DNA from: an uncultured Erysipelotrichaceae bacterium
GTDB lineage: Bacteria > Bacillota_I > Bacilli_A > RF39 > UBA660
Assembly: GCA_902797105.1 (NCBI GenBank)
Contig: CADBRL010000029.1
Span: forward strand, 1 to 37,246
Length of the DNA stretch: 37,246 nt
Direction of reading: 5' to 3'
Shown here: positions 30,780 through 33,136 of the stretch, piece by piece
Position numbering within the stretch: position 1 is the first letter of the stretch
How the letters are laid out: every line of letters begins with the position of its first letter
Made by a program: the position numbers and the translations under genes
Notes under the pieces: generated by a model
Told to the model about the DNA's origin: nothing
Database searches by the model: none
What the model saw: only the letters and a program-made list of their open reading frames with translations

Positions 30780-30888
30780 AGACTACCTCTATATCAATTA
30801 TTATACCACTAATTATTAGTTTTATATATCAGATTATACATAAGTTGACACTTTCAAAGTAAATAATTAATAAATAAAAATTTTCATC

Positions 30889-30992
30889 AAAAAACTAGAT
30901 ATAAAATCTAGCTAACTTTTTTAATTTCCACTTTGGCTTGGGTACTCCCACTTTTTTATAAATCATATTTTTGAGGTTTCCCTCATCAATAT
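30889..30992 (-). ncRNA. putative orphan ToxI-like small RNA (promoter copy, hairpin, degenerate repeat, terminator)
   Basis: Downstream of the duplicated promoter, the minus strand has hairpin tgagg/cctca and then aaaagtgggagtacccaagcc-aaagtggaaatt. That stretch shares the aaagtgg core of the 36-nt units. It ends with terminator ctagat-tttat-atctag plus T6 (30889-30911). No ORF. Confidence 0.3.
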
Positions 30993-30998
30993 AGATTT

Positions 30999-31027
30999 AA
31001 TATATCATAACTTTGTGTGTTTGTAAA
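30999..31027 (-). promoter_or_regulatory. promoter, copy A (paralogue of the toxI promoter)
   Basis: Minus strand has TTTACA (31022-31027), 17-nt spacer, TATATT (30999-31004). It is part of a 55-nt block with 46/55 identity to 31761-31815. Confidence 0.4.
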
Positions 31028-31033
31028 ACTTTT

Positions 31034-31560
31034 TTAATTGGTTTGCATAATTTTTGAATATTCCTCGCACTTTTCCTTTAACAATTTGAAATTACAGCAT
31101 CTTCTAGCAATGTTATTTTCAGGAGCCAAATTCTTTAAAACATATATAATTTTTGCATTTTCAAAAATTATATTTTTGTCTATTAAATTTAACTCTTTTT
31201 CTAGTAATTTCCAATAATTTTTTTATCTCTCTGATTATCAAATATTCTAAATTCTTCAAGATTGTCAAATGTTACTTGAGTATAGTTTGATGATGTAACA
31301 GGTATCATATTATTTAAATCTATTGCTCCATATATTTTTCCAGTTTTGTAATTCATAATTTTAAAAAAGTCTAAATCGTTTTTCATGTTATCAAATTTTT
31401 TCTTATATGATGTTAATGGTGCAAAAAAATCAGTTCCATCTAACCTCAAAATAATACCTAAAAAGCATTTCATCTTGTTTTTATATTCAACATTTGGTAT
31501 AAATTTATCATATTTCTTTAAGTATTTTATGTAATCATTGTTTATTGAATACCAAAACAT
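31034..31560 (-). pseudogene. toxN: ToxN/AbiQ-family type III toxin endoribonuclease, interrupted by a 1-nt frameshift in an A7 tract
   Basis: N-terminal 112 aa carry FWYSINNDYIKYLKKYDKFIPNVEY, FLGIILRLDGTDFFAPLTSYKKKF and IDLNNMIPV. After the A7 run (plus-strand T7, 31218-31224) the annotated frame stops at 31201. The -1 frame continues NYWKLLEKELNLIDKNIIFENAKIIYVLKNLAPENNIARRCCNFKLLKEKCEEYSKIMQTN to a stop at 31034-31036, matching my recollection of the ToxN C-terminus (CNFSLLEEKY). One extra A would give a 175-aa protein. GGGGGAG SD. Confidence 0.8.
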
Positions 31561-31580
31561 TTTATCTCCCCCTAAACAAA

Positions 31581-31607
31581 GGATTATTTTCGTATAGAAA
31601 ATAATCC
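31581..31607 (-). terminator. internal terminator between antitoxin repeats and toxin gene
   Basis: ggattattttc / gaaaataatcc form an 11-bp perfect stem with a 5-nt loop, followed on the minus strand by TTTGTTT. Confidence 0.6.
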
Positions 31608-31727
31608 CACTTTTAATATCACTTTTGAACTGGATGTGAGAACCACTTTATTGTTCACTTTTGAGCTGGACGTGAGAACCACTTTATTGTTCACTTTTGA
31701 GCTGGATGTGAGAACCACTATAATGGA
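31608..31727 (-). ncRNA. toxI: ToxI/antiQ-like type III antitoxin RNA: tandem 36-nt repeats (about 3.3 units)
   Basis: Units lie head to tail with no spacers at 31620-31655, 31656-31691 and 31692-31727. Units 1 and 2 differ at 2 positions. Unit 3 differs from unit 2 at 5. A partial unit lies at 31608-31619. The array is on the same strand as the ToxN-family ORF and immediately upstream of it. Confidence 0.8.
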
Positions 31728-31777
31728 CAACAATGTTTCCATATATTTAATGAGAAATATCTCATGAATACATAACT

Positions 31778-31806
31778 AATATATCATACCATTGCGTGTT
31801 TGTAAA
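31778..31806 (-). promoter_or_regulatory. promoter, copy B (toxI-toxN promoter)
   Basis: Minus strand has TTTACA (31801-31806), 17-nt spacer, TATATT (31778-31783), followed by hairpin atgagaaatatctcat. Confidence 0.5.
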
Positions 31807-31813
31807 GCTTTTT

Positions 31814-33136
31814 TTATTTACTTTCTACTTTCTTTAAAGTATCTCCATCTAACACAAATAAATCATTTATATAGCTTTTTACTAATGGATACTTCATATC
31901 ATTATCTTTACTATATAGATAGCCAACACTTGATATCATTGGTAATTCTAATGTTTTAAATTCTTCATTTATATTATTTAAATATTTATAATATAAAACA
32001 TCACTCGCACTTTCATTTGCAATTATAATTAAATATTTATCAATAACAACAACTCTATCTACATTATCTACATCAAAGGTTATATTTTTTACTCCGATAT
32101 TATCTTCAAGTACTGCCTTATTATCTTTTTTATAAATATGATAAATAGTACCATCTTCTAGAGTGTAATTAAAATCATCATAACTATAATAATGAGTTTC
32201 AACTTGAGAAAACTCTTTTATATCATAATTGGTACATACATAATAATCTTCTGTATTTGCTCCGAATAAACCAAATAAAATATTTGATATAAAGAAAAGA
32301 GCTATAAGAATAAACATGCTATTATTATATATCTTTGTTTTCTTTTCTTCAAAAATAGATGCTGAGTAAAGCAAATAAATTAAACTTAGTATTATTGATG
32401 CAACCATACTTGCTGCTGTTATGCTAATTGGTACATTACTTACATAACCACAATCTGTTACTAGATTAACTTCATTAAGAAGTACTGAAAAATCATAGAA
32501 ACTATGAAGAAAAATCATTGCCCATACATTGCGAGTTTTATAATACACTGTACCAAAAAGAATACCTATCGCTGTTGTTTGCACAAATTGCATCATCGTT
32601 GTAAGTAAATCTTGACCAGCCAGTAAATTAGTTAAATGTACAGTACCAAATACTACCCCACTAATAATAATTGAAATAAGTATTTCTTTTTTATTACTAC
32701 TATATTTTTCTAAAAGTTCATTTTCAATTATGCCTCTAAAGAATATTTCTTCAAAGAAACCAATTAAAACAACATATATAACTAAACTTATTAAATTGTT
32801 AACATTAATATTTGTTCCAATTAATTCCGTGGCATTAGCAAGTGCTATAATAACTGATAAAACTAAAATTGGTAAACATAGTTTAATAGATTCTCCAAAA
32901 TTAATTTTCTTTTCTTTGAATATATACCATTTTTTTCTAATTATTAGTAAAACAATAGCAAAAACAAATACTACAAATTCACTAACAGCATATATAATAT
33001 ACTTACCATTTAGTAAACTAAAATATAATTTTGATGCTATTACTCTCCCTAAAATTTTAGTAAATGCTTCAAAAATTACAAATATTAATGCTACTTTAGC
33101 TATAAGTACCCAAATATTATTCTTCTTTTCGTCCAT
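31814..33136 (-). CDS. CPBP (CAAX / Abi) family intramembrane glutamic endopeptidase with extra C-terminal domain
   Basis: 440 aa. EEIFFRG, FGTVHLTN and FLHSFYDF motifs in a multi-pass membrane domain. Followed by about 150 aa of soluble, beta-rich-looking sequence of unknown function. Confidence 0.8.
   Translation of the reverse strand: MDEKKNNIWVLIAKVALIFVIFEAFTKILGRVIASKLYFSLLNGKYIIYAVSEFVVFVFAIVLLIIRKKWYIFKEKKINFGESIKLCLPILVLSVIIALANATELIGTNINVNNLISLVIYVVLIGFFEEIFFRGIIENELLEKYSSNKKEILISIIISGVVFGTVHLTNLLAGQDLLTTMMQFVQTTAIGILFGTVYYKTRNVWAMIFLHSFYDFSVLLNEVNLVTDCGYVSNVPISITAASMVASIILSLIYLLYSASIFEEKKTKIYNNSMFILIALFFISNILFGLFGANTEDYYVCTNYDIKEFSQVETHYYSYDDFNYTLEDGTIYHIYKKDNKAVLEDNIGVKNITFDVDNVDRVVVIDKYLIIIANESASDVLYYKYLNNINEEFKTLELPMISSVGYLYSKDNDMKYPLVKSYINDLFVLDGDTLKKVESK

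Follow-up and report, generated by a model that had tools for sequence, protein, structure and literature searches.

The ToxIN/AbiQ family of type III toxin-antitoxin (TA) systems has been known since 2009-2012 and has hundreds of members in Firmicutes. Loci of the toxIN family are characterized by the homology of their toxin, a terminator that precedes the toxin gene, a tandem array with units of ~34-36 nucleotides (nt), and an upstream promoter (Blower et al. 2012, PMC3401426). Here, we analyze a locus on the minus strand of a stretch of 37,246 nt (contig CADBRL010000029.1, positions 1 to 37,246), which is referred to as the window. The host is an uncultured Bacilli bacterium, known from metagenome-assembled genomes of the human gut (Hadza and others). 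We consider it very likely (with a probability of about 0.88) that the locus represents a chromosomal type III TA cassette which belongs to the toxIN family and has lost its toxin in this strain. It shows ToxN/AbiQ homology, a terminator in front of the toxin gene, and an array with at least two copies. The H-type pseudoknot pattern is found at the level of the family, and none of the five ToxN active-site residues is missing. The original prediction had assigned the locus to the type III toxIN/AbiQ class with the order promoter, array, terminator, and toxin, and this assignment, with a promoter that is putative, is supported by the sequence-level tests. The locus belongs to the known toxIN family and is not a new kind of system.

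The Pectobacterium atrosepticum ToxIN system (plasmid pECA1039; structures 2xd0/2xdb/2xdd) shares with the window locus the order of promoter (putative in the window), 36-nt array, terminator, and toxin. The toxins match in sequence (E = 6e-16), in fold (template modelling score, TM, of 0.76/0.82, query-/target-normalised), and in five conserved active-site residues, but they are only 28% identical over the structural alignment. The units of both arrays are 36 nt long and have interleaved stems S1 and S2, GG/CC within S1, and A-rich tails, while the number of units differs (5.5 for ToxI_Pa, 3.2 in the window), as does the unit sequence outside of the stem pattern. ToxIN_Pa is plasmid-borne in a proteobacterium, whereas the window locus, with its frameshifted toxin gene, resides on the chromosome of a low-GC gut bacterium of Gram-positive type. 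Two further described systems, AbiQ/antiQ of Lactococcus lactis pSRQ900 (4glk; 2.8 units of 35 nt) and ToxIN_Bt of Bacillus thuringiensis pAW63 (4ato; 2.9 units of 34 nt), are from Firmicutes and have about three units, as in the window (PMC5086642). Their query-normalised TM values are 0.72-0.76, but their sequence similarity to the window toxin (E = 1.5e-7 for 4glk and 1.1e-10 for 4ato) is below that of ToxN_Pa. Both loci are plasmid-borne and have been shown experimentally to cause abortive infection (Abi), whereas the window locus is broken and is known from its sequence alone.

Among the relatives and alleles which we compared with the window locus (L-numbers for contigs, P-numbers for proteins), ToxN/AbiQ loci from gut Bacillota show 56-61% toxin identity (L034, L040, L078). 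Two proteins, P0012 from Faecalibacillus faecis and P0031 from an Erysipelotrichaceae bacterium, carry the NCBI annotation "type III toxin-antitoxin system ToxN/AbiQ family toxin". These gut loci have nearly the same units, the same spacing, and the same terminator position as the window locus, but they are found in other species and at other sites, and their copies appear intact. The cptIN and tenpIN systems follow the same logic, in that the gene for an endoribonuclease toxin is preceded by an antitoxin made of repeat RNA. Membership in these families was rejected because ToxN_toxin is the sole Pfam match of the window toxin and the fold match to CptN is weak (4rmo: TM 0.55, E = 6e-3, 12% identity).

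The elements named in the original prediction (promoter, small hairpin, repeats, terminator hairpin, Shine-Dalgarno sequence, and open reading frame, ORF) were all found on the minus strand. In the order of their proposed transcription, the features of the cassette are:

31778..31806, minus strand: putative promoter P1, TTTACA, 17-nt spacer, and TG-extended -10 element TATATT (10/12 consensus matches)
31750..31765, minus strand: 5' leader stem-loop AUGAGAUAUUUCUCAU, with a matching stem-loop at the equivalent place after promoter P2
31606..31721, minus strand: ToxI-like array of A units, consisting of three units of 36 nt each (31721-31686, 31685-31650, 31649-31614) and an 8-nt partial unit AAAGTGGG (31613-31606), delineated by Tandem Repeats Finder (TRF) and reading
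31574..31608, minus strand: intrinsic terminator that separates array and toxin, with a stem of 12 bp, a loop of 5 nt, and a TTTGTTT tail (-13 kcal/mol, z = -4.6)
31566..31573, minus strand: Shine-Dalgarno sequence AGGGGGAG, recognized by sequence reading
31201..31560, minus strand: 5' part of the toxN1 pseudogene, an ORF of 119 amino acids (aa) with residues 1-114 in frame, which covers the beta core and the active site (PF13958, 1.5e-29)
31218..31224, minus strand: A7 homopolymer, at which the frame shifts by -1 (intact alleles: A8 in L010; A6/A7 in a different local context in L001 and L002)
31034..31217, minus strand: 3' part of the toxN1 pseudogene, out of frame, with the C-terminal helices and the CCNFKLLKEK motif (profile match of the repaired frame)

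The toxin gene toxN1 and its frameshift

In the window, toxN1 has undergone an A8-to-A7 contraction at codon 114 and runs into a stop after 119 codons; an intact reading frame is absent. Addition of one A to the A7 run (31224-31218) restores a frame of 175 aa, which ends at 31034. A hidden Markov model (HMM) search of this repaired protein, which had been proposed together with the prediction, yielded a significant match to ToxN_toxin (PF13958) over the full profile (3.8e-41, 141 bits compared to a cut-off of 25, profile positions 2-159 of 159). The repaired protein has no other Pfam match, and the unrepaired 119-aa ORF already scores 103.6 bits against the same profile. The AbiQ model of PADLOC is matched with 5.8e-29. 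Among the PDB chains, 7d8o (1.6e-15) is matched in addition to the ToxN chains 2xd0 and 4ato and the AbiQ chain 4glk, for which values are given above.

The fold was addressed with P0001, an allele with intact frame that is 98% identical to the window toxin. Its AlphaFold2 model has a mean predicted local distance difference test value (pLDDT) of 93, and its best PDB matches according to Foldseek are 2xd0, 4ato, 7d8o, and 4glk, with a query-normalised TM of 0.70-0.76. All strands are within residues 4-95, followed by helices at 110-126, 129-145, 150-153, and 158-174. The active site of ToxN_Pa is composed of Tyr29, Lys33, Thr52, Ser53, and Lys55 (PMC5086642). In the HMMER alignment, Y26, K31, T50, S51, and K53 of the window toxin align with these five residues and are in invariant or near-invariant columns of the family. 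The toxin motifs which had been quoted as hallmarks are real, as they also map to invariant or near-invariant alignment columns (APLTS.K, NNMIPV, CCNF.LL.EK). P0001 is the only "intact" 175-aa allele at NCBI; it carries T50R within the near-invariant APLTS motif (equivalent to Thr52 of ToxN_Pa; L001 3145-3150), and this substitution suggests that the P0001 allele may be inactive as well.

The frameshift had been treated in the original prediction as something to be repaired. At least six other independent assemblies encode exactly the same 119-aa product (ERZ28615504, ERZ1029116, ERZ919323, ERR3201394, SRR33322337, and SRR33322320). The frameshift is thus a real allele, because it is found identically in independent assemblies that were built with different assemblers. 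The same -1 slip occurs on a second haplotype background in three further samples, and the matching intact A8 allele (encoding DKKNYW) is present in L010-12. The truncated product retains the beta core and the catalytic residues but loses essentially all of the C-terminal helices. In ToxIN complexes, a kinked helix of the C-terminal part grips the pseudoknot (PMC8860590, PMC5086642). Judged from its sequence, the truncated ToxN1 is most likely unstable and inactive, and this copy is most likely non-functional as a toxin or Abi system.

The ToxI-like array, its putative promoter, and its terminator

The array of A units was detected by TRF at 31619-31719 (2.8 copies, 95% matches, score 188); the next-best repeat of the window has a score of 72. 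The three 36-nt units and a partial fourth unit had been predicted and are confirmed, but the predicted coordinates 31620-31727 represent a register which is shifted by 6 nt from that of the family. For the terminator, a perfect hairpin of 11 bp with a T-run had been described. Hairpin and T-rich tail are present, with a stem which we count as 12 pairs. None of 200 shuffled sequences folds as stably, and the terminator ends 13 nt before the ATG.

The window A unit reads AAAG UGG UUC UCAC AU CCA GCUCAAAA GUGA ACAAU, which fits an arrangement with S1 UGG/CCA and S2 UCAC/GUGA. The ToxI unit forms an H-type pseudoknot, and the GG/CC in its S1 is conserved (PMC8860590); the window unit carries this central GG/CC.

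To place this unit in its family, toxin relatives were gathered from metagenome and IMG/VR contigs. At least 93 of the ~125 relatives with enough upstream sequence carry arrays of 33-40-nt units with 2-3.2 copies upstream of the ATG. This is a lower bound, as the negative TRF calls include L034, which has two clear units, and L114, which has two diverged units. The arrays mostly end 41-145 nt before the ATG. Their units have in common an A-rich junction, which is followed by interleaved complementary segments in the order S1-5', S2-5', S1-3', and S2-3'. A constrained search for this interleaved two-stem arrangement was applied to 54 distinct units and to mononucleotide shuffles thereof. The arrangement beats 95% of the shuffles in 33 of the 54 units and 90% in 42 of them. 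Among these units, 35 distinct strands occur for S2 and 22 for S1, and their comparison indicates that pairing is kept while the unit sequence changes across relatives. A MAFFT alignment of the 54 units was not used, since stems were shifted by 1-2 columns between subfamilies; the shuffle-scored search was used instead. In L114 (IMG/VR, 1378-1455), where the array was missed by TRF, the two diverged units differ by a compensatory change in stem 2 (GAGCG/UGCUC compared to GAUUG/CAAUC).

Near-identical A-like units were found in other gut metagenomes upstream of toxins with 51-61% identity (L034, L035, and L040; for example AAAGCGGTTCTCACATCCAGTAAAAAGTGAACAAT in L034). It had been suspected that the antitoxin may represent a new cognate specificity. 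The unit sequence does indeed differ from ToxI of P. atrosepticum, but it follows the pseudoknot pattern of the family, and near-identical units exist elsewhere. To judge from the sequences compared, the divergence of the window unit is no more than the usual divergence from locus to locus, and locus-specific units are the norm in this family.

A search of 30800-31900 against Rfam (E <= 10) returned nothing relevant on the array. L135 from IMG/VR has a 37-nt array which we take to resemble the P. atrosepticum ToxI unit, and as a control this array was not matched either. The silence of Rfam on the window array is thus uninformative. In L135 (920-1165 and 1380-1500), the array adjoins matches to C4 antisense RNA and isrK, which are immunity RNAs of P1/P7-type phages. 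The locus illustrates that an RNA antitoxin, which escapes protein-only annotation and Rfam, can be recovered as an array from raw sequence. Due to the 36-nt period, an ATG-initiated ORF of 52 aa runs through the array (31584-31742, minus strand), which is a possible source of misleading annotation. In P0005, the gene caller stretched the toxin ORF upstream through the repeats. Both the 52-aa ORF and this extension are artefacts.

P1 shows conservation throughout strains L001-L032. Its paralogues are the promoters P2 and P3, which are found further downstream. The leader stem-loop possibly contributes to stabilisation of the 5' end. The three promoter modules share a common core, AAAAAAGCTTTACAAACACGCA...TGATATATTA, in which a few positions vary between the copies (window 31778-31815 and 30999-31036; L001 2745-2790, 3525-3570, and 3756-3800). 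Between the -35 and -10 elements, their conservation exceeds what a promoter needs. This extra conservation may reflect a joint of duplication or recombination, or an operator.

The way in which an intact allele would work can be proposed from the homologous ToxIN systems of P. atrosepticum, B. thuringiensis, and E. coli and from AbiQ/antiQ (PMC3401426, PMC5086642, PMC8860590). A constitutive, extended -10 promoter would direct transcription of the leader hairpin and the three 36-nt units. Most transcripts would end at the terminator, which would leave the antitoxin RNA in excess, and read-through would provide the toxN1 mRNA. As an endoribonuclease with the ToxN active site, ToxN1 would process the precursor by cleavage within its A-rich junctions (...ACAAU AAAG...). 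The individual units would then adopt an H-type pseudoknot (S1 UGG/CCA, S2 UCAC/GUGA), the A-rich tails of which stay single-stranded, and each would bridge two toxin monomers, resulting in a closed, inactive RNA-protein ring. When phage infection halts the supply of the labile RNA, free ToxN1 would degrade A-rich RNA, and the infection would be aborted. In the window, array, putative promoter, and terminator are intact, and the RNA is most likely transcribed but purposeless beside a dead toxin gene.

Strain polymorphism and the second cassette

The site was compared in 32 contigs with the same flanks. An intact toxN1 gene is found in L001, L010-12, and L021-32. The A8-to-A7 contraction has broken the gene in the window, L004-9, and L013-15, as have an A6-to-A5 contraction in P0064 and the combination of T7-to-T6 and T6-to-T7 in L002, P0056, and P0060. 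A 70-bp deletion between direct repeats has destroyed it in L003 and P0005. In L016-20 and P0054, a CAG codon has been converted to the nonsense codon TAG, and a further deletion between CAAAAATAT repeats has removed the 3' end of toxN1 together with the next promoter. At least five different lesions of toxN1 are thus found at this site (homopolymer slips, a nonsense codon, and two deletions). Among the matches listed (15 of 54 cluster members), contigs with a broken toxN1 outnumber those with an intact one by ~51 to 18. Among the four homopolymers in toxN1 with a length of 6 nt or more, three have slipped by +/-1 in some strain (window 31423-31429, 31363-31368, and 31218-31224). The two larger deletions, in L003 and L016, are both framed by short direct repeats.

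Most strains possess three A units, while L021 and L027 have two, together with an intact toxin. Arrays with one unit are restricted to L002 and L018, both with a broken toxin. This agrees with the requirement of antiQ for at least 1.8 repeats (PMC5086642). The strains are ~97-99% identical in this region. Loss of the toxin before the antitoxin is the order expected from the addiction logic of TA systems. The strain comparison shows the pattern which is expected for such a toxin-first decay of a TA module; in the literature searched, we did not find this order documented for RNA-antitoxin systems.

The predicted span of 31034-31816 contains the toxIN cassette, but the locus continues beyond it, with the remnant of a second cassette at 31027-30889. 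The features of this remnant are:

30999..31027, minus strand: putative promoter P2, TTTACA-17-TATATT with TG, a paralogue of P1 (consensus scan and comparison)
30972..30985, minus strand: leader stem-loop after P2, UGAGGGAAACCUCA (-10.8 kcal/mol, z = -4.1)
30919..30954, minus strand: single orphan 36-nt unit of B type, the array remnant of the second cassette, with toxN2 being absent here (strain comparison)
30889..30917, minus strand: weak AT-rich terminator after the B unit (-8.9 kcal/mol, z = -3.3), conserved in all strains

The second cassette is complete in L001, L002, and L028-32, where it consists of P2, the leader hairpin, three B units, the terminator, P3, and toxN2. The latter codes for a protein of 168 aa that belongs to PF13958 and is 35% identical to toxN1. 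Strains devoid of toxN2 retain P2, hairpin, terminator, and two B units (L010-15) or, as in the window, one. In the strains with a complete cassette, P3 and a leader hairpin are located between the array terminator and toxN2 (L001 3525-4374, L002, and L028-L032), and, from this arrangement, the expression of toxN2 may be independent of terminator read-through. In L083 (1380-1480), a consensus-type promoter sequence, TTGACT-17-TATAAT, is found between terminator and toxin.

In the nearest relatives of toxN2 within the set (L071, L072, and L083; 48%), the units are B-like, and array and ATG are separated by the same long distance. Therefore, the B array is probably the cognate antitoxin of toxN2. 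The toxin of L148 is no closer to toxN2 than toxN1 is (36% compared to 35%) and gives no assignment of B to toxN2. The left-behind modules are eroded. The -35 element of P2 has changed from TTTACA to ATCACA in L003, P2 is deleted in L016-20, and in the 3' strand of S2 of the B unit, GGG has been replaced by GAA in L003 and by GGA in the window. This erosion argues for neutral decay rather than for a retained orphan antitoxin. As judged by its sequence, the second cassette has decayed further than the toxIN cassette in the window.

On its own, the window locus is one more member of the ToxIN/AbiQ family, and a broken one; it is probably a dead copy of a well-known phage-defence module. The value of the site rests mainly on two other aspects. 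It represents a natural series of a type III module that decays toxin-first, with at least five independent toxin lesions while the array is kept. In addition, the tandem of distinct ToxN cassettes with paralogous promoter modules could be used to study the cross-specificity of closely linked ToxI RNAs.

Alternative explanations and genomic setting

Several points weigh against the assignment as a toxIN-family cassette with a lost toxin. In this AT-rich sequence (27% GC), pairs of promoter-like hexamers are no more frequent than expected by chance (12 pairs compared to 9.6 +/- 2.6 in shuffles). As hexamers are not enriched over shuffles, P1 is called from its location and from being conserved among strains and among paralogous copies, and not solely from its match to the consensus. 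When the window A unit is taken by itself, the pseudoknot search gives p = 0.09 against shuffles, and nearest-neighbour folding of this unit finds nothing (z = 0.26), as expected for a pseudoknot. The truncated ToxN1 may have residual activity, given that all catalytic residues are retained, and slippage on the A7 run may restore the frame at a low level. The host being uncultured, Abi activity is tied to no phage.

It is unlikely that the site reflects more than neutral decay, be it as a phase-variable Abi toxin or through promoter-array-terminator modules which are retained as ToxI-like RNAs against incoming ToxN. The homopolymers of toxN1 could act as a phase-variable switch, with slipped-strand mispairing in the A8/A7 and T runs that reversibly silences a costly Abi toxin, or a low dose of full-length toxin could be produced by transcriptional slippage or by -1 ribosomal slippage on U AAA AAA A. 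Two backgrounds do share the -1 slip (P0053 RIFDN and P0062 RMFDS), and for both of them an intact A8 exists (P0065 and P0063). A6-to-A5 occurs at the same place in P0064, the T7-to-T6 and T6-to-T7 slips of L002, P0056, and P0060 add to these, and of the four runs with 6 nt or more, three have slipped somewhere in the population. However, runs of 6-8 nt are short for a high rate, and shared haplotypes can also be produced by recombination. Other strains carry irreversible lesions (nonsense codon and 3' deletion in L016-20, 70-bp deletion in L003), and the two slips in L002 are accompanied by the collapse of the array to one unit, which resembles decay. For programmed frameshifting, no stimulatory structure was seen. 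We consider phase variation or slippage to be quite unlikely. The frameshift could also be a sequencing or assembly error, with an intact and working toxIN in the actual strain. Homopolymers are a classic site of such errors, and the window is probably metagenome-assembled, but the error would have had to produce the identical 119-aa product in at least six other samples with different assemblers and the same lesion on another background in three further samples, while intact A8 alleles were readily assembled from similar data. This makes an error highly improbable.

Arrays left behind by dead or absent toxins (the A array, the orphan B unit) might be selected as stand-alone antitoxins against toxN genes on incoming phages or plasmids; if this were true, the left-behind promoter-array-terminator modules would neutralise ToxN brought in by these elements. 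There is a precedent in the phage-encoded pseudo-ToxI which neutralises ToxN (PMC3475682). P2, hairpin, at least one B unit, and terminator persist in every toxN2-less strain that still has the region, and most strains in which toxN1 is broken retain a full A array. At the same time, the B units have collapsed from three to two to one, and a single antiQ unit was insufficient in published data (PMC5086642). L003 has a mutation in the -35 element of P2, L016-20 lack P2 because of a deletion, and the 3' strand of S2 is altered in L003 and in the window. With ~97-99% identity among strains, persistence needs no selection. We thus regard a selected role as stand-alone antitoxin as very unlikely. 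That the 36-nt repeats are a coding repeat or a CRISPR-like array (clustered regularly interspaced short palindromic repeats) has a practically negligible probability. The period is a multiple of three, the 52-aa ORF (31742-31584) spans the array from an ATG, and the ORF of P0005 was extended through its array. However, inter-unit variation preserves RNA pairing and not codons. A coding repeat was ruled out, as the periods of the relatives are 33-40 nt and mostly not multiples of three, and as the 52-aa ORF is devoid of a Shine-Dalgarno sequence. A CRISPR array was ruled out, as the units are arranged head-to-tail without spacers and the only CRISPR-repeat match is inside the toxin ORF (E = 6.1).

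The site of the toxIN cassette and the second-cassette remnant is located between the genes for an Rce1-like protease and a lipoteichoic acid (LTA)-synthase-type sulfatase, in housekeeping surroundings. The flanking genes code for the Rce1-like protease, YebC, a patatin, the LTA-synthase-type sulfatase, and an asparagine synthase. In plasmid and phage collections, the locus had no match (BLASTN, distant mode), and there is no sign of a catalogued mobile element. A search of the complete window with Rfam gathering scores reached no family (no tRNA, riboswitch, or T-box). The 37-kb window is densely coding housekeeping DNA with a GC content of 27%.

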